The notes below the pieces were generated by a model. It ran no database searches and was not told where the DNA came from. It saw only the letters and a list, made by a program, of their open reading frames with translations. The position numbers and the translations under genes were made by a program. A stretch of 37,672 nt of DNA from a virus, in IMG/VR virus record IMGVR_UViG_3300043015_000381, positions 1-37,672 of that record; one strand, given 5' to 3'. Shown here piece by piece: positions 5,480 to 37,672 of this stretch (positions within the stretch are counted from its first letter, which is position 1; every line of letters starts with the position of its first letter).

Positions 5480-5517
5480 GGTTCGCTGTCCCTTTAATGT
5501 TTCAGGTTATGTGTCCC

Positions 5518-5546
5518 ACTATATACAGCTATTCAACACAATGCAA
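5518..5546 (-). promoter_or_regulatory. Sigma70-like promoter driving the minus (replication) arm
   Basis: Minus strand reads TTGCAT, 17 nt spacer, TATAGT. An A/T-rich UP-like tract (5547-5570) lies upstream, and the first gene starts about 30 nt downstream. Confidence 0.5.
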
Positions 5547-5611
5547 GTAATAATTTAATTTTTTTTTGTAGCACGCCACTGCCCCTGTACTCATGTACTA
5601 GTACGCTGATA

Positions 5612-5684
5612 CCTGTATAAATATACAGTGCTGTACAGATATACAGTGCTGTACAGATATACAGTGCTGTACAGATATACAGTA
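5612..5684. repeat. 18-bp tandem repeat ATATACAGTGCTGTACAG: 3 perfect copies (5621-5674) plus flanking partial copies
   Basis: Read directly. Each unit contains the palindrome CTGTACAG. The array lies between the two divergent promoters. Confidence 0.9.
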
Positions 5685-5821
5685 GACTAAAGTATAATAC
5701 GAAATAGTTTGACATAGGCTATAAAGTGTAGTACTCGCACGCACACGCATAATAGAAGGTAGCAGTAAATTTTGGTTATAAGCATATTTCAAAGCGATAT
5801 AAAAAATATTTAACTTTTTTG

Positions 5822-5849
5822 TTGCATTCAAAAGTGAAAGCTCTATACT
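5822..5849 (+). promoter_or_regulatory. Sigma70-like promoter driving the plus arm
   Basis: TTGCAT, 16 nt spacer, TATACT, preceded by an A/T-rich tract (aaaaaatatttaactttttt). Confidence 0.5.
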
Positions 5850-5900
5850 TGTAATCACTGGGACGCAACAACGCAGCCCAACAAACAAAAGGTATATATT

Positions 5901-6277: not shown

Positions 6278-6948
6278 AACTTTTAAGTACAAGCGCAAAA
6301 CTTGAAAAATCTCAGAACGATAACTGGTTAAACTACGTTCTATATTTAGAGCCTAGCGTTGATTACAAATCAATCTGCGCTGGTAGTTCTAAGGGCTGCC
6401 GAGCTAGCTGTTTAGTTAATAGCGGTATGATGCGTATGCCAGTACAGACCAAAGCACGCATTGAGCGTACAAGGCTCTATATAGACGATAGAGAAGCTTT
6501 TATGACTAAACTGGTATCAGAGCTTAACGCAGCACTAAAACGGGCTCAGAAAGCCGGTAAACGCCTAGCAGTGCGCCTAAATGGCACTAGTGATCTAGAT
6601 TGGTCTAGTGTTTACATGCTCTATCCAGATATACAGTTTTACGAATACACAAAGCGAGTACAGATTGTTAAAGCGGTATCAGAATTGCCTAACGTGCATA
6701 TCACTATGAGCGCTACTGAAAAGACAACGCCAGAGCGCATAAAGCTTGTAACTGATAACGGTACTAACGTTGCTATGGTATTCGCAGATAAAGTGCCAGC
6801 AACATACAAGGGCTTTACCGTTATAGATGGCGATAAGCACGACAGGCGCTTTGAAGACCAACAAGGGGTTATTGTAGGGCTTAAGCTTAAGGGGACTAAC
6901 AAGGCTAAACAATCCGCTATTGATACAGGCTTTGCCCGTTATGCTTGA
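6274..6948 (+). CDS. Conserved phage protein resembling the GP88 family; function unknown, enzyme-like
   Basis: 224 aa. Cys cluster CAGSSKGCRASC. Other motifs RLNGTSD, YEYTK and VIDGDKHDRRF. The family assignment is from memory of its pattern and has not been searched. Confidence 0.45.
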   Translation: MKLLSTSAKLEKSQNDNWLNYVLYLEPSVDYKSICAGSSKGCRASCLVNSGMMRMPVQTKARIERTRLYIDDREAFMTKLVSELNAALKRAQKAGKRLAVRLNGTSDLDWSSVYMLYPDIQFYEYTKRVQIVKAVSELPNVHITMSATEKTTPERIKLVTDNGTNVAMVFADKVPATYKGFTVIDGDKHDRRFEDQQGVIVGLKLKGTNKAKQSAIDTGFARYA

Positions 6949-7022
6949 GCTGATAGAGTTAGGCGGTATAGGCTGGTTGCTCTACCATATGTTTAAATGA
7001 TCTAAGGATATAACTAATTTAG

Positions 7023-7054
7023 GCTCTGGGCTTGCAAAGGCTCAGGGCTTTTTT
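7023..7054 (+). terminator. Rho-independent terminator closing the 5901-6948 operon
   Basis: GCTCTGGGC, loop ttgcaaag, GCTCAGGGC (9 bp stem, two G-U pairs), followed by TTTTTT. Confidence 0.6.
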
Positions 7055-7130
7055 GTGCTTAGTGCTATAACCAAATAATATAAATATATTCCCCTTAGTT
7101 ATCCGCCTAAATTGCCCTGTAAGCGCTTTT

Positions 7131-7262
7131 CTATACCCAACTAATACCCTACTATACCTTAGCTCTAACAGCGCTCTAACAGCGCTCTAACGGGCTCTAT
7201 AAAGCTCTAAGCGCCTATGCCAGTATCTATGCCAGCACTATACAGCTATATAGCTCTATATA
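7131..7262. repeat. Helically phased array of about 13 short units, each starting CT[A/C]TA. The core is GCTCTAACAGC x2, followed by variants.
   Basis: Unit starts at 7131, 7141, 7152, 7163, 7174, 7185, 7195, 7205, 7215, 7227, 7238, 7246 and 7254. Spacings are 10-12 bp, then 8 bp. Confidence 0.8.
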
Positions 7263-7290
7263 TGTGAGCACTATGTCAGACTGTTAAGGG

Positions 7291-7324
7291 CTGTATAGAT
7301 CTAATAAGGTCTGTATAGATCTAA
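7291..7324. repeat. Direct repeat CTGTATAGATCTAA x2 with a 20-bp period
   Basis: Copies at 7291-7304 and 7311-7324. Each contains the palindrome TAGATCTA. Confidence 0.85.
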
Positions 7325-7443
7325 ATAGGCTGGTGAGTAGCATACTGTCCCCACACTTTCAAGCTTTTTAGACCTGAAATATTCTCAGCTATTCAGACCT
7401 TGACAGACTACACAGCCTATGCTAGCCCCCTAACATAGCACTG

Positions 7444-7474
7444 TAGATCTATACAGTACTGTACAGCTATACAG
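7444..7474. repeat. Inverted copy of the 7291 repeat (TAGATCTATACAG), fused to a diverged copy of the 18-bp repeat family from 5621
   Basis: The reverse complement of 7444-7456 is CTGTATAGATCTA. 7451-7474 (ATACAGTACTGTACAGCTATACAG) matches 5623-5646 at 22 of 24 positions. Confidence 0.8.
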
Positions 7475-7488
7475 GTCTGTGAAGTCTA

Positions 7489-7550
7489 GTTAGTGAGTAC
7501 TTACTTCAATGTTAGTGAGTACTTACTTCAATGTTAGTGAGTACTTACTA
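7489..7550. repeat. 22-bp tandem repeat GTTAGTGAGTACTTACTTCAAT, 2.8 copies
   Basis: Perfect copies at 7489-7510 and 7511-7532, and a partial copy at 7533-7550. Each holds the near-palindrome GTGAGTACTTAC centred on AGTACT. Confidence 0.9.
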
Positions 7551-7794
7551 GGCTATAGAGATCTGCTTAGGGGACGGGGGAGGGGATTGATGCGCTATTA
7601 TTTTTACTGTACCTGCTCAGACACAAAATAGACCAAAATTGACCCTAATTAGAGACACTATCTATCCAGACTCTGTAGCCTATAAAGTCCTACTAAATCA
7701 GTGGGTTATAGCTAAGAAGGCTATGGAGGAATGCGTGCAGAACCTATAAAGCTAAATAGCAATGTAGATTTATTAAAAAAGATCAGATTAGCTA

Positions 7795-7823
7795 TTGACT
7801 TTTGAGCTAAAATATGATATACT
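7795..7823 (+). promoter_or_regulatory. Sigma70-like promoter for the packaging operon
   Basis: TTGACT, 17 nt spacer, TATACT, then ATC CTATATAGTAAC. An A-tract lies upstream (tattaaaaaag). Confidence 0.6.
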
Positions 7824-7925
7824 ATCTATATAGTAACAACAAACATTGAATACTGTTGTCACCAATCATCAATCACTTTGTATCTATATAACAACTCTTA
7901 ACATATATCATTCCACTTGGAGAAA

Positions 7926-8408
7926 ATGATGAATGACCCAGATAAACCGATAGAGACTACTGTCGTTGACTCTATAGAGCCCGACAACTCTACCAATCCC
8001 GAACAGACTTCTTTGAAGAAAAGAGGGAGAGGAAGACCCCGAAAGACTGAAGTTGCGGCTAAGAAAAAAGGCTCTAGAGGGCAGGTTGGAAGACCTAAAG
8101 GTGATGCCGCCATAATGAACGAGTACAAAGCTCGTATGCTAAATAGCCCTAAGAGTCGTAAGGTCTTAGAGACTATCTTTGATGCTGCTTTGGATGATGA
8201 GCATAAGAACCAAGGAGCAGCTTGGAAGCTTATTATGGATAGACTACTTCCTGCAGGTATGTTTGAGCAAGAGGTCTCTAAAGGTCAACAGCGCAACGCA
8301 GTCAACATAACCATTAGTGGGGTTGGTGGTGAATCTATTAACATTGGTGCTACACAGACCTCTGAAGAAGAAGAGATATATGAAGGGGAGTACCGTGATG
8401 TCAACTAA
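7926..8408 (+). CDS. Putative small terminase / DNA-binding protein with AT-hook-like N-terminus
   Basis: The motifs KKRGRGRPRK and GRPKG, and its position just upstream of TerL. The ORF-track start at 7917 is TTG. The ATGs at 7926 and 7929 follow GGAG. Confidence 0.45.
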   Translation: MMNDPDKPIETTVVDSIEPDNSTNPEQTSLKKRGRGRPRKTEVAAKKKGSRGQVGRPKGDAAIMNEYKARMLNSPKSRKVLETIFDAALDDEHKNQGAAWKLIMDRLLPAGMFEQEVSKGQQRNAVNITISGVGGESINIGATQTSEEEEIYEGEYRDVN

Positions 8409-8874
8409 CCTTAACCAGTCCATGTTGGAACGTACACAGGATGACCTTATTCGCCACGAAGGCTATGTAGACCGTATCTACCTAGACACTGAAGGGCTAC
8501 GTACCTTTGGTGTTGGACATCTTGTTGGACGTAATGACCCTGAAGCTAATTGGCCTGTAGATACACCAGTTAGTGATGCTCGTATCTTGTTAGCCTTTGA
8601 AGAGGACTTCAATGAGGCTGTGAAGGATGCTTGTAGTATTATTCCTAATCTAGAAGCACACCCTAAAGAAGTTCAATCTATTCTCATTAACATGGCTTTT
8701 AACCTTGGCTATAATCGCCTATCTAAATTTAAGAAGATGATAGCGGCTGTAAGGGCTTGTGATTACGCTACAGCCTCGTTAGAGATGAAAGACTCTAAGT
8801 GGTATCGTCAAGTAGCTAGACGTGGAGAAGAGCTTGTAGAGCGTATGGCTAAGGTGGCTGCTGATGGAGCTTAA
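8398..8874 (+). CDS. T4-type lysozyme (GH24) endolysin
   Basis: HEGYVDRIYLDTEGLRTFGVGH shows the E-x8-D-x5-T catalytic spacing of T4 lysozyme. The internal ATG at 8398 has a GGGGAG RBS. The gene overlaps both neighbours by 11 nt. Confidence 0.85.
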   Translation: MSTNLNQSMLERTQDDLIRHEGYVDRIYLDTEGLRTFGVGHLVGRNDPEANWPVDTPVSDARILLAFEEDFNEAVKDACSIIPNLEAHPKEVQSILINMAFNLGYNRLSKFKKMIAAVRACDYATASLEMKDSKWYRQVARRGEELVERMAKVAADGA

Positions 8875-36963: not shown

Positions 36964-37672
36964 TTAGTGTGTATCTGCCCACGTCTTACCGTGATCTGCC
37001 TCTGCCGCTACCTCCAAGCGGAAGCCTAGTTGTTCGCCAGCAGTCTTAGCAGCCTCTACCAGCAGCTCTTTAAGCTTGTCTACGTCCTTGTCAGCACAGT
37101 CCCACTGCGTCTCATCGTGTACGAATGCTACAAGCTTAGCGTCTAGTTTGTGCTTAACCACCTGCTTCTGGCTCTCTACAAGCCACTGCTTAGCCACTAT
37201 AGCCCCTGCTGACTGCAAGAGCATATTCAAGGCGCTGTGCTCTGACTTTACCTGTATACGTCTACCGTCTAGTGCTGGAACCCAGCCTTTAGCGCTTATA
37301 CGTTTGACTTTCTCAATAAGCTTCTTCATTGAAGGTATCTTACGGAAGAAAGCTTGCTTTAGCTTCGCACCTTCCTTGCCGCCACCGCCAACGATAGAGC
37401 CAAGTTTGGCCTCACCTGCACCGTAGAGGAACGCATAGATGAATGTCTTTGCATCGTTTCGTGTAGGTAGACCTGCTGCCTCTTGGTTTGCTGTGTGTAT
37501 ATCACCTTCTAGTAGCTCCTTTGTGTATTTAGGGTCATTCATATAATGCGCTAGACATCTTAGCTCAATACCAGAAAGATCAGCGCCAACAAGAACTCTA
37601 TTACTTCCAACTGTCCATAACTCCCTACAATCGTGGTCTGATGGTATCTGAGCCATGTTAGGGCTACTGTGT
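36964..37672 (-). CDS. Family A DNA polymerase, C-terminal part (palm and fingers). Same gene as 1..1041.
   Basis: Motif A DLSGIELR, motif B RNDAKTFIYAFLYGAG (Tyr at the T7 Y526 position), motif C FVHDETQ. The frame is open to the window end and overlaps 1-127. Confidence 0.9.
   Translation of the reverse strand, partial: HSSPNMAQIPSDHDCRELWTVGSNRVLVGADLSGIELRCLAHYMNDPKYTKELLEGDIHTANQEAAGLPTRNDAKTFIYAFLYGAGEAKLGSIVGGGGKEGAKLKQAFFRKIPSMKKLIEKVKRISAKGWVPALDGRRIQVKSEHSALNMLLQSAGAIVAKQWLVESQKQVVKHKLDAKLVAFVHDETQWDCADKDVDKLKELLVEAAKTAGEQLGFRLEVAAEADHGKTWADTH
37546..37672. repeat. Second copy of the 127-bp contig-end overlap
   Basis: Identical to 1-127 by direct comparison. Confidence 0.95.

Follow-up and report, generated by a model that had tools for sequence, protein, structure and literature searches.

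A gene-free, repeat-dense region upstream of the terS-like gene

The window (the whole stretch of DNA analysed, 37,672 nucleotides) represents a 37.5-kb podovirus genome that is complete and circular in the assembly, with a 127-nt overlap of the ends. The genome encodes a T7-type replication set consisting of a primase-helicase, a family-A polymerase, a gp2.5-like SSB, an exonuclease and an endonuclease. Protein family searches detected no RNA polymerase gene in it; the ORFs that were scanned yielded neither an integrase nor a repressor, and the 30 proteins scanned yielded no initiator-like family, several small ORFs having no match of any kind. The locus studied, 6949-7925, is bounded upstream by a GP88-like gene (Pfam PF17338, E=3.6e-37) that ends at 6948 and downstream by a gene starting at ATG 7926 or 7929, with GGAG at 7919-7922. 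The latter gene, termed terS-like here, lies just upstream of TerL, which it abuts in the relatives L001-L005.

The original prediction that this gap holds no credible ORF was confirmed. Only two ORFs of at least 30 aa lie within it, both overlapping tandem repeats or a hypervariable stretch; gene callers placed no gene in the homologous gap of three close relatives, and the indels that distinguish close relatives here have lengths that are not multiples of three. The predicted repeat density was borne out as well. Self-recurring 10-mers cover 22.7% of the region, the top-ranked segment of its size in the genome (median 3.5%), as compared with 4.7 ± 2.8% (maximum 13.3%) in 200 dinucleotide-preserving shuffles. 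Searches for RNA genes gave only Rfam hits far under the gathering scores and no tRNA or tmRNA, and RNAalifold, applied to 77 sequences of the conserved element described below, found zero consensus pairs; the structured RNA that had been named as a way in which the original prediction might fail thus received no support. The features of the gap are listed here from left to right, followed by one related array elsewhere in the genome.

7021..7057, + strand: intrinsic terminator of the orf71/GP88-like operon, a 13-bp stem (7021-7050) with 6 G-C pairs, then a T run
7131-7158: 11-nt-period array CTATACCCAA, 2.7 copies (Tandem Repeats Finder)
7162-7199: 11-nt-period array GCTCTAACAGC, 3.5 copies (Tandem Repeats Finder)
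7215-7235: CTATGCCAG, two copies, with a variant copy at 7417
7238-7260: CTATAnAG repeats with an 8-nt period
7285-7324: 20-bp tandem TAAGGGCTGTATAGATCTAA, two copies, with an inverted copy at 7444-7456
7325..7374, + strand: block in common with L001 (blastn of 7314-7375 against L001, 80%)
7400..7430, + strand: promoter-like site P_G, by homology to promoters abutting the G tract in relatives
7441..7474, no strand: pair of LexA(SOS)-box-type palindromes with 18-bp phasing, CTGTAGATCTATACAG and CTGTACAGCTATACAG, just after the predicted P_G start
7489..7549, no strand: 22-bp tandem in 2.8 copies, giving three iterons GTTAGTGAGTACTTACTTCAAT (TRF score 122, 100% matches)
7509-7631: small ORF lying over the tandem repeat
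7570..7585, + strand: G tract GGGGACGGGGGAGGGG, the 5' part of a family-wide conserved element
7586..7608, + strand: AT-rich spacer of 23 nt, conserved in length and variable in sequence (alignment of relatives)
7609..7644, + strand: block B GTACCTGCTCAGACACAAAATAGACCAAAATTGACC, the conserved core (nhmmer across related loci)
7625-7644: AAAATWGACC, two copies, part of block B
7639-7749: small ORF with a TTG start
7701..7794, + strand: conserved stretch upstream of the late promoter, 92-93% identical in L134/L138/L139
7795..7823, + strand: predicted late promoter TTGACT-17-TATACT with TG before the -10 (10/12 match)
7824..7925, + strand: 5' leader of the terS-like/lysozyme/TerL operon, 100% identical in L134 and 88% in L138/L139
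5613..5682, no strand: part of a divergent intergenic region holding four LexA-type boxes with 18-bp phasing, TATAAT (5693-5698) lying just downstream of the last

By regex search, the terminator, the repeat families, the lone G tract and the promoter all lie at or within a few bases of where they had first been placed. The phased CT[A/C]TA array of the first description corresponds to the two 11-nt-period arrays. The repeat family CTGTATAGATCTAA originally described as having an inverted copy is present, and it includes two CTGT-N8-ACAG palindromes, the pattern of the gamma/beta-proteobacterial LexA box; the 20-bp tandem units are half-site-like (CTGTATAG) and not full CTGT-N8-ACAG boxes. The gap is the central non-coding control region of the phage, conserved and composed of multiple elements, and the term 'hub' is apt for it.

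Relatives of the phage and its probable host

The region was compared in about 200 related contigs. Searches of 50,697 phage records with the gap (blastn) and with the terS-like protein (tblastn) gave no match to a cultured relative. Other proteins of the phage resemble those of cultured phages at some distance: TerL has at most 44% identity over half of its length, the portal about 23% (HMO-2011 type) and the polymerase about 40% (pelagiphage and roseophage). Since cultured relatives are only distant, no phage with mapped ends could serve as a guide. More than 5,000 homologs of the terS-like protein were found, Tara samples among them, and the family consists of very abundant, uncultured marine podoviruses. 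Near-identical contigs occur, for example, in JGI 3300040959 and 3300042019 and in ENA ERR7460765. A search of bacterial genomes for the host yielded a single, uninformative 1.8-kb MAG contig. The types of site present (CTGT-N8-ACAG, TGCACC-N5-GGTGCA and TTGACA promoters) hint at a gamma- or beta-proteobacterial host.

Conserved islands and a variable cassette

Alignment with relatives revealed a mosaic in which conserved islands (the G tract at 7570-7585, block B at 7609-7644, and 7701-7925) surround or follow a hypervariable cassette at 7433-7556. In genomes with 95% identical terS-like proteins, identity falls to 43-48% in the cassette as against 97-100% in the flanking islands. The alignment that the original prediction had called for sets the conserved G tract and block B, with its two AAAATWGACC copies, apart from the arrays of 7433-7556, which turn over.

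Block B was matched by nhmmer in 90 of 133 related loci and then in 204 of 249. In relatives it is always on the + strand, about 100-450 nt upstream of the terS-like gene; in the window, where it has one copy per genome, the element lies 280 nt upstream of the terS-like start. It is 98% identical in L134 and 80% identical in L138/L139. Within the G tract, which is the only such tract in the genome, CGGGGG is nearly invariant among 77 aligned relatives, the tract being swapped for a C-rich or palindromic version in L002, L053, L138, L139 and others. Duplex stability in the region is lowest at the late promoter and near the terminator, and not at the AT-rich spacer.

Other parts of the gap show differing degrees of conservation. 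The terminator is 97% identical in L134. The 11-nt arrays are one unit short in L134, and L138/L139 have other repeats (GGCTGCAGAGGCT) in their place. The block at 7325-7374 is possibly a degenerate copy of 'block A' (CTATAGGGTRCTRCNYAGACTCTCACACT), which in relatives is found 60-200 nt upstream of the G tract and forms with block B a direct repeat, the two being 150-270 nt apart; this assignment is tentative, because the block A profile is significant in 29 relatives and not in the window. Blocks A and B were also considered as promoters for a phage RNA polymerase and rejected, block B being single-copy and no RNA polymerase gene having been found. The conserved stretch at 7701-7794 contains an A-rich, UP-like sequence and, at 7721-7752, a degenerate CTGCGGAG...CCCGC motif that was found in more than 50 relatives. 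This motif is a possible hairpin, with unpaired flanks and a mean z of -1; no covariation was seen, and none is scorable, because GCGG and CCGC are invariant. The late promoter itself is 100% identical in three relatives, and an A-rich stretch plus CTTGACA occurs at its position throughout the family.

Promoters directed into the G tract

At least 24 other loci have an extended -10 σ70 promoter of the form CTTGACA-N17-(TGn)TAxxxx, which is located about 30 nt upstream of the G tract and is directed into it. L134, the closest relative, has a TTGACA-18-TAGAAT promoter in place of the iterons. The corresponding rightward site in the window, P_G, consists of TTGACA at 7400-7405, a 17-nt spacer, TG at 7420-7421 and a -10 of TAGCCC at 7423-7428, with a C run at 7426-7430. 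It was missed by a consensus scan because this -10 is weak. By sequence, then, the window has a promoter, with a weak -10, that points at a tract whose non-template strand is rich in G; its homology to the other sites suggests that P_G is a promoter and may be active.

Host-regulator site arrays and iterons

The cassette beside the G tract holds, in relatives, either a σ70 promoter or arrays of consensus sites of the DnaA, Fur-like, NtrC-like or LexA type. Any enrichment of these sites is to be read with the reservation that the four host factors were chosen after the motifs had been seen and that related loci are not independent samples. DnaA boxes were found in 25 of 148 relatives (about 17%), with 3-10 boxes each by the pattern TTATNCACA and up to 7 exact TTATCCACA boxes. 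These arrays, of 3-7 exact boxes or up to 10 by the looser TTATNCACA, abut the G tract. Element-bearing loci contain 108 perfect TTATCCACA boxes, of which 90 are no more than 400 nt from the tract; 89 of these fall in the first 200 nt on its upstream side. The density of TTATNCACA is 54-fold above that elsewhere in the loci. Where the window has its iterons, L024 has DnaA boxes spaced by 11 and 22 nt. A promoter into the tract was found in only 2 of the 25 loci with DnaA arrays, which suggests that promoter and DnaA array may be two alternative ways to open the same element. No DnaA box occurs in 6949-7925 of the window, even with one mismatch allowed.

Fur-like boxes overlap the promoter-like site beside the G tract in relatives of the L033 and L019 types. 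σ54 promoters downstream of NtrC-like sites, looked for by eye in L070 and L084, were rejected for lack of the GG-N10-GC spacing. For the LexA type, six exact CTGT-N8-ACAG sites were found in the genome of the window, against 1.5 expected by chance, and all of them lie in two intergenic regions; six sites were reached in none of 100 shuffles. Two of the sites have at most 3 mismatches to the 20-mer TACTGTATATATATACAGTA, the match at 7441-7474 being 17 of 20 positions, and the consensus is that of gamma/beta-proteobacteria. The pair at 7441-7474 follows the predicted P_G and is not conserved at the same spot in L134, while the box at 5667-5682 precedes the TATAAT of a predicted promoter at 5693; the array at 5613-5682 has four units in the window versus two in L134. 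In relatives with DnaA or NtrC-like cassettes, sites of the type found in the cassette likewise appear again in a second intergenic region. LexA or some other protein may bind the arrays.

At 20 nt from the G tract, the 22-bp iterons of the window occupy the position that arrays of DnaA, Fur-like or NtrC-like sites take in relatives. Each holds a 14-bp near-palindrome, AGTGAGTACTTACT, that occurs nowhere else in the genome, and they are spaced by two helical turns. No convincing match to a known regulator motif was found for the 22-bp unit, which is private to the lineage of the window. Arrays of host-factor sites in phages had no relevant precedent in the literature searched.

A possible replication origin combined with a late promoter

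The reading that we favour, tentatively and at somewhat less than an even chance, is that the gap contains a replication origin, opened by transcription or by an initiator, together with a late promoter. The conserved element would be the origin core for a T7-type replisome that works without a phage RNA polymerase. Opening might occur in two ways. Host RNA polymerase would transcribe into the G tract, here through P_G, and act by an R-loop or by 'transcriptional activation'; or the opening would be the work of an array of bound initiator-type proteins abutting the tract, for example at the DnaA boxes that many relatives carry. Once the DNA is open, synthesis by the phage primase-helicase and DNA polymerase would begin at the AT-rich spacer and block B. 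In this scheme the variable repeats act as gates or iterons, to which host proteins (LexA-type here) or others would bind and so time the firing of the origin; they would not be terminase sites. R-loop formation or unwinding, and the start of replication within the gap, are thus presumed events in this scheme.

Several observations are in favour of such an origin. In 204 related loci the element occurs, always in one orientation, ahead of the terS-like gene. Groups of DnaA boxes next to a GC cluster and an AT-rich stretch are typical of DnaA-dependent origins, and other loci have a promoter into the tract. The L024- and L065-type cassettes lie in a divergent intergenic region between leftward genes and the rightward terS operon. 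In the window, three phased 22-bp iterons, two helical turns apart, lie beside the element and its AT-rich region, as in iteron-type origins. P_G would not be needed merely for late-gene transcription, since a strong, fully conserved late promoter is located 200 nt downstream. The phage has T7-type replication genes, and no RNA match or fold was found for the region. The cumulative GC skew is lowest at 5-8 kb and highest at about 29 kb; the curve follows gene orientation, and the effects of replication and transcription are not separable in it. Of the functions first proposed (pac/cos site, terminus or origin), it is the origin that gained support from the comparison of relatives.

Against an origin are the lack of a DnaA box in the window, the poor -10 of P_G, a spacer that is not the stability minimum and the failure to identify an initiator gene. 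To our knowledge, Fur, LexA and NtrC are not origin-opening proteins, and their arrays therefore fit a regulatory or decoy role better than that of an initiator. The inverted or palindromic G tract of some relatives would fit a GC clamp and not a strand-specific R-loop. Finally, a pac or cos site would be expected just as much to lie immediately ahead of the terS-like gene.

A possible packaging site

That the locus is a pac or cos site, with terminase recruited to and cutting at the G tract and block B, is in our judgement rather unlikely. Block B, which is A-rich, and the short direct repeats that follow it would serve as sites for the AT-hook terS-like protein, and the upstream host-protein arrays would be architectural helpers, as IHF is in lambda cosB and P1 pac. 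The AT-hook motifs noted in the original prediction were found again: the protein matches Pfam AT_hook at 19 bits against a cutoff of 17.4, and its RGRP and GRPKGD motifs are invariant in 34 homologs. The AT hooks could bind block B. Both the element and these DNA-binding motifs are conserved family-wide, and in every case the terS-like gene follows the element on the same strand, 100-450 nt further on. The order of phased repeats, unique GC-rich tract, short direct repeats and terS recalls cosQ-cosN-cosB-Nu1 of lambda and pacL-pacC-pacR of SPP1, and GC-rich cohesive ends are common among cos phages. TerL does not classify as a T7-type large terminase by Pfam (Terminase-T7_RNaseH-like, 21 bits against a cutoff of 27; best families Terminase_6N and 6C), its ATPase domain being of the T4 and P74-26 type, and for 2 out of 107 contigs the G tract is the exact starting point.

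Contig starts, used as a proxy for cos or DTR ends, do not however pile up at one fixed base and are scattered 8-160 nt upstream of block B; G runs alone also break Illumina assemblies, and the start of the L085 contig is read through by another contig. An inverted tract in close relatives is hard to square with an asymmetric cohesive end, and we know of no role at pac or cos sites for perfect DnaA-box arrays or for promoters aimed into the tract. The terS-like protein is, moreover, no more than a putative small terminase: apart from AT_hook it has no Pfam match, no PHROG and no PDB sequence or profile match, and the name rests on its position and on an AF2 model of low confidence (pLDDT 58; three helices, two strands). 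For the variable repeats, the original analogy with arrays of small-terminase sites (lambda cosB R sites, SPP1 pac) is not supported. The variable arrays do not co-vary with the small terminase as terminase-binding repeats should; they turn over between genomes with 95% identical terS-like proteins, and host-protein consensus sites take the homologous position while the DNA-binding motifs of the protein stay invariant. The only candidates left for terminase binding are block B and its two AAAATWGACC copies.

Regulatory readings

An alternative of similarly low probability is a pure transcriptional switch, in which P_G and the operator arrays form a second promoter and leader for the late (structural) operon, gated by the state of the host. 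It could act as a copy-number timer, host repressors blocking read-through at low copy and being titrated as phage DNA replicates. The order promoter, operators, conserved leader and late operon agrees with this, as do the LexA-type boxes, which span about +5 to +38 relative to the predicted start of P_G, the Fur-like boxes overlapping the promoter-like site in L033- and L019-type relatives, and the presence of one site type in both promoter-bearing intergenic regions of a genome. However, the downstream late promoter is consensus-like, fully conserved and has no evident operator, so that the late genes would be independent of P_G. Moreover, 7-10 perfect DnaA boxes go far beyond the needs of promoter control, the leader has no conserved RNA structure, and the high conservation of block B is left unexplained.

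A broader proposal, which we likewise consider rather improbable, is that the phage outsources its initiator or repressor to whichever host regulator is abundant, so that host physiology gates replication or the early-late switch, with the arrays serving as decoys too. Gating would then be by replication status, iron, nitrogen or DNA damage, depending on the regulator used in each lineage (DnaA, Fur, NtrC, LexA or private iterons).

More doubtful still are arrays that act solely as decoys, a 'sponge' whose sites, multiplied by genome copies, drain host DnaA, LexA, Fur or NtrC, the element being a mere neighbour. Such a role would account for sites at or near perfect consensus in arrays, for a regulator that differs by lineage, for further arrays in a second non-coding region of the same genome and for fast turnover in copy number (the four LexA-type units in the window versus two in L134). 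Yet the arrays are not scattered and keep one set position against the G tract, the private iterons of many lineages, that of the window among them, have no known counterpart in a host, the LexA-type boxes of the window number only six, and the literature searched offers no precedent.

A structured non-coding RNA or missed small protein is very improbable, for although a promoter-like site is directed into conserved sequence and two small ORFs exist, RNA searches and folding of 77 sequences were negative, the ORFs lie over tandem repeats or the hypervariable stretch where relatives have no called gene, and close relatives differ by indels that are not multiples of three.

Implications

How replication starts and how late timing is set are poorly understood in T7-like phages without their own RNA polymerase, and the abundant marine groups are uncultured, which makes these questions difficult to study. 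This locus supplies a definite and testable candidate, namely a 75-bp element that is conserved in hundreds of contigs and is faced by either a promoter or an initiator array. If the reading is true, regulator arrays swapped between lineages would give a virulent phage a novel means of sensing or disturbing host physiology by DNA sites alone, and could bear on how the outcome of infection depends on iron, nitrogen and stress in the sea. For annotation, a repeat-rich gap next to terS should not default to pac or cos.

Comparison with known systems

The arrangement in the window, a promoter into a G-rich tract and then an AT-rich stretch in a phage with a T7-type replisome, resembles transcription-primed or R-loop origins, and can be likened to the T7 primary origin (promoters phi1.1A/B plus an AT-rich region), T4 oriF and oriG, RNA II of ColE1 and mitochondrial LSP-CSBII; the G run GGGGACGGGGGAGGGG is of the same kind as that of CSBII. 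It differs from these in that there is no phage RNA polymerase, the promoter being of the host σ70 type and weak in the window, in the operator or iteron arrays that lie between promoter and G tract, and in the inversion of the tract in some relatives.

In bacterial oriC, DnaA boxes are followed by a GC-rich cluster and then by the unwinding element. About 17% of the relatives, with phased boxes, a GC cluster and an AT-rich stretch, resemble oriC, P1 oriR and the plasmid origins with DnaA boxes. No repeats like the DnaA-trio were seen, and, unlike in DnaA-dependent origins, the window has no DnaA box, box orientation varies by lineage and the phage has its own helicase. The lambda ori has four phased iterons, an AT-rich region and a palindrome. 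The window is similar in its three identical, phased, near-palindromic 22-bp iterons beside a conserved core, the iteron sequence being lineage-specific. Unlike those of lambda, these iterons lie outside any initiator gene, no O-like initiator was identified, and host-factor sites replace the iterons in relatives.

With lambda cos and with SPP1 and P1 pac, the locus shares a position just upstream of a small-terminase-like gene, a unique GC-rich tract flanked by repeats and the possible use of host DNA-binding proteins. It departs from them in repeats that are not conserved alongside terminase and in promoters or DnaA arrays aimed at the tract. The circular assembly is compatible with headful packaging of the SPP1, P22 and P1 type, and is not diagnostic of it.

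Boxes for host regulators at or just after phage promoters have counterparts in tum of coliphage 186, in rstA of CTXphi and in GIL01 (LexA), and in the PhoB and NtcA sites of cyanophage promoters. Unlike in those cases, the boxes in the present family form tandem arrays (of two and four in 18-bp phase), the scanned ORFs gave neither integrase nor repressor, and sister lineages have sites for different regulators at one and the same locus.

Gene layout

Comparison of the window's two ends (1-127 and 37546-37672) shows 127 nt of identical sequence; thus the assembly is a complete circle, 37,545 bp in length. Leftward genes run from 5479 through the junction to 29506, and rightward genes from 5901 to 29299. 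The leftward block carries a T7-type replication set (primase-helicase, family-A DNA polymerase, gp2.5-like SSB, exonuclease and endonuclease) and the nucleotide metabolism genes RNR, ThyX, MazG and thioredoxin; the 541-aa polymerase ORF lies across the circular junction on the minus strand (36964 to 1044). The rightward block includes the terS-like gene, lysozyme, TerL (Terminase_6N/6C), an SU10-type portal, capsid and tail genes. Among the ORFs scanned, none was recognised as an RNA polymerase, integrase or repressor. Cultured relatives are distant only. Marine metagenomes contain more than 5,000 homologs of the terS-like protein, all of them unannotated. A 185-aa ORF at 1428-1985, adjoining the primase-helicase gene, matches homing-endonuclease-like PHROGs and is a possible mobile insertion into the replication module. 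The lysozyme gene (8398-8874), which follows the terS-like gene and precedes TerL, may be a mobile module, since it is missing from this position in the closest sub-lineage (related loci L001-L005), where the terS-like gene abuts TerL.

The gap and its conserved element

The gap between the GP88-like and terS-like genes spans 6949-7925. The original prediction described it as repeat-dense and free of credible ORFs. Both descriptions held, and all of the elements it listed are present. The 10-mers that recur inside the gap cover 22.7% of it, far above chance (4.7 +/- 2.8% in dinucleotide shuffles; genome-window median 3.5%), making it the genome's top window for repeat density. In three close relatives, gene callers likewise left the homologous gap empty. 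The features of this gap and of a second control region are as follows.

Features of the two control regions in the window
5613-5682, four LexA-type boxes in 18-bp phase, within the divergent intergenic region 5480-5900
7021-7050, terminator stem
7400-7428, predicted rightward promoter P_G: TTGACA 7400-7405, TG 7420-7421, TAGCCC 7423-7428, by alignment to relatives' promoters
7441-7474, two CTGT-N8-ACAG (LexA-type) boxes, between P_G and the G tract
7489-7549, three 22-bp iterons, between P_G and the G tract
7570-7585, G tract, the only one in the genome
7586-7608, AT-rich spacer
7609-7644, block B
7721-7752, degenerate copy of the CTGCGGAG motif
7795-7823, late promoter TTGACT-17-(TG)TATACT

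Searches anchored on the terS-like protein and TerL yielded 133 IMG/VR loci, and a pattern search with block B yielded 107 more. The closest relatives, found by near-identical protein look-ups, were L134 (terS-like protein 95% identical) and L138/L139 (85%). Aligned with these, the gap is a mosaic of conserved islands and a hypervariable stretch. The island at 7557-7645 is 97-98% identical in L134 and 80% in L138/L139, the latter over 7595-7645 only; 7701-7925 is 92-100% and 88-100% identical, respectively, with the promoter hexamers 100% conserved in all three. The hypervariable cassette, 7433-7556, falls to 43-48% in L134 and 25-43% in L138/L139, L138 having a scaffold gap here.

With a profile of window 7550-7660, the element, about 72 nt long, was found once in each of 204 loci; in every case it shares the strand of the terS-like gene and precedes that gene by 100-450 nt. 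Its consensus is CGGGGGnGGG, about 20 variable AT-rich nt, then GTACCTGCnYAGAYACAAAAAAGAGCnAAATT. Some relatives carry the G tract in inverted form, and the spacer is not at a duplex stability minimum in the window.

Other motifs were seen nearby. Block A, CTATAGGGTRCTRCNYAGACTCTCACACT, precedes the G tract by 60-200 nt in relatives (e.g. L033:5368-5414) and has no significant match in the window. It shares TAG-GTACYnCnYAGAC with block B, forming a direct repeat on both sides of the variable cassette; a promoter -10 (TAGACT), a nick site and a repeat boundary are candidate roles. More than 50 loci have a second motif, CTGCGGAG-N15-25-(A/T)CCCGC(C/T), immediately before the late promoter, in relatives at +135 to +180 nt relative to the G tract (e.g. 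L065:4961-5000); its GCGG and CCGC are invariant, so a hairpin and a two-part protein site are indistinguishable. Of two IMG/VR contigs that start at or just before the G tract (L197:1-52 and L235:1-34), one begins with the random-amplification primer-like GTTTCCCAGTCACGATC, directly followed by the G tract, and the other exactly at the G tract. Contaminating adaptor sequence, an assembly break at the G run or a physical end could explain such starts.

Host-regulator consensus sites in the variable cassette

Relatives carry phased arrays directly upstream of the G tract, and the repeat unit depends on the lineage. Among element-bearing loci, 90 of 108 perfect DnaA boxes (TTATCCACA) are no more than 400 nt from the G tract, and 89 of these fall in the 200 nt upstream. 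Arrays abutting the tract have 3-7 exact boxes, or up to 10 if counted as TTATNCACA; those of L024 lie at -136, -124, -102, -80, -58, -35 and -13. Other lineages have Fur-like arrays in which GATAATGATTCTCATTAGC, matching the E. coli Fur box at 16/19 positions, is repeated 3-6 times, or 2-3 NtrC-like palindromes per cassette, TGCACC-N5-GGTGCA, several of them exact. The NtrC-type array of L066 spans -144 to -44 from the G tract, and the L084, L070 and L080 cassettes also hold exact or near-exact palindromes of this type; no sigma-54 promoter was recognisable downstream of the palindromes in these four (L070 and L084 inspected by eye), and block B is altered to TAGACTTGCAAGAGGGCAAAATA. One or two LexA-type sites, CTGTAT-N4-ATACAG, occur in some relatives' cassettes. 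Many lineages instead have private iterons without a known match. The cassette of L001, a close relative, has (at 1749-1808) six perfect tandem 10-bp units, GCTGTCAAGT, and further CTGTCAAG copies; the units are Pho box-like, but spaced at 10 rather than 11 bp.

In a panel scan of 87 dereplicated loci, consensus sites were denser in the cassette than in the rest of the loci by 54-fold (DnaA), 21-40-fold (LexA), 45-fold (Fur), 114-fold (NtrC) and 10-fold (IHF), figures to be read in light of the non-independence of related loci and of the choice of DnaA, LexA, Fur and NtrC after their motifs had been seen. CRP, FNR, PhoB, PurR, TyrR, MetJ, ArgR, CpxR and Cra consensus sites had zero cassette matches in these 87 loci.

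Promoters directed into the G tract

At least 24 loci have an extended -10 sigma-70 promoter, CTTGACA-N17-(TGn)TAxxxx, directed into the G tract and stopping a few bases short of it; in L134, TTGACA-18-TAGAAT lies about 30 nt upstream. Only 2 of 25 DnaA-array loci have such a promoter. Window 7393-7428 can be aligned with these sequences, but P_G is weak by sequence and, unlike in relatives, about 135 nt separate it from the G tract.

Exact CTGT-N8-ACAG sites number six in the genome, all intergenic and in 18-bp phase, against a chance expectation of 1.5 (0 of 100 shuffles reached six). The arrays at 5613-5682 and 7441-7474 thus bracket the orf71/GP88-like operon on both sides. The former is flanked by a leftward TTGCAT-17-TATAGT (about 5520-5550, by eye) and a rightward TATAAT (5693-5698). 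L134 has two units there, against four in the window, and no conserved counterpart of the 7441-7474 pair, which indicates fast turnover. The cassette's site type is found again in the same genome's other control region: L074 and L078 have four additional DnaA boxes about 2.7 kb upstream, and L070 and L084 an NtrC-like site. In L024- and L065-type genomes, the cassette itself lies within the intergenic region from which the leftward genes and the rightward terS operon diverge. In the window lineage, one ancestral control region appears to have been split in two by the orf71/GP88-like operon.

Possible function of the locus

The common theme is that the G tract, AT-rich spacer and block B have a promoter, or an array of putatively bound proteins, directed at them. 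We tentatively suggest that the locus is an origin core, gated in a lineage-specific way, with the late promoter after it. An origin is favored by the T7-type replisome without a phage RNA polymerase, by the location at or near the transcription divergence point and at the cumulative GC-skew minimum, and by the separate, fully conserved late promoter downstream. Counting against it are the lack of any DnaA box in the window, the weakness of P_G, the spacer's duplex stability and the inverted G tracts; Fur, LexA and NtrC are, to our knowledge, not origin openers, which also counts against it. The stronger claims are based on relatives rather than on the window itself, where two LexA-type boxes, private iterons, the conserved element and the late promoter are directly seen.

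The original prediction likened the repeats to small-terminase site arrays. The variable repeats do not fit this role, because they vary whereas the terS-like protein keeps its DNA-binding motifs invariant, and because those of sister lineages are host-protein consensus sites. A pac or cos site is plausible, though less probable than an origin: position and the co-conserved AT-hook protein speak for it, but contig starts, a weak test, gave no fixed end. We consider a purely transcriptional gate or copy-number timer for the late genes similarly plausible. Decoy arrays draining host regulators, which could coexist with the other readings, are less probable still. Since no consensus RNA pairs were found in the element (RNAalifold, 77 sequences) and Rfam gave no match, constraint acts on DNA or primary sequence; a structured RNA or hidden gene is very improbable.

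Comparison with known systems

The locus is perhaps a phage origin and control region, a kind already known. Phage promoters with a single host-regulator site are known, as are DnaA boxes at some phage and plasmid origins. In the literature searched, we met no account of an abundant family, without detected lysogeny genes, that bears next to a conserved element, always in the same place, a swappable cassette of DnaA, Fur-like, NtrC-like and LexA-type arrays. In DnaA-dependent origins, DnaA-box clusters lie beside a GC cluster and an AT-rich stretch; relatives resemble these in having DnaA arrays beside the G tract, whereas the window, without a DnaA box, differs. In the transcription-primed origins of T7, T4 (oriF/G), ColE1 and mitochondria (CSBII), a promoter runs into a G-rich tract, and the likeness here lies in a predicted promoter directed into such a tract.
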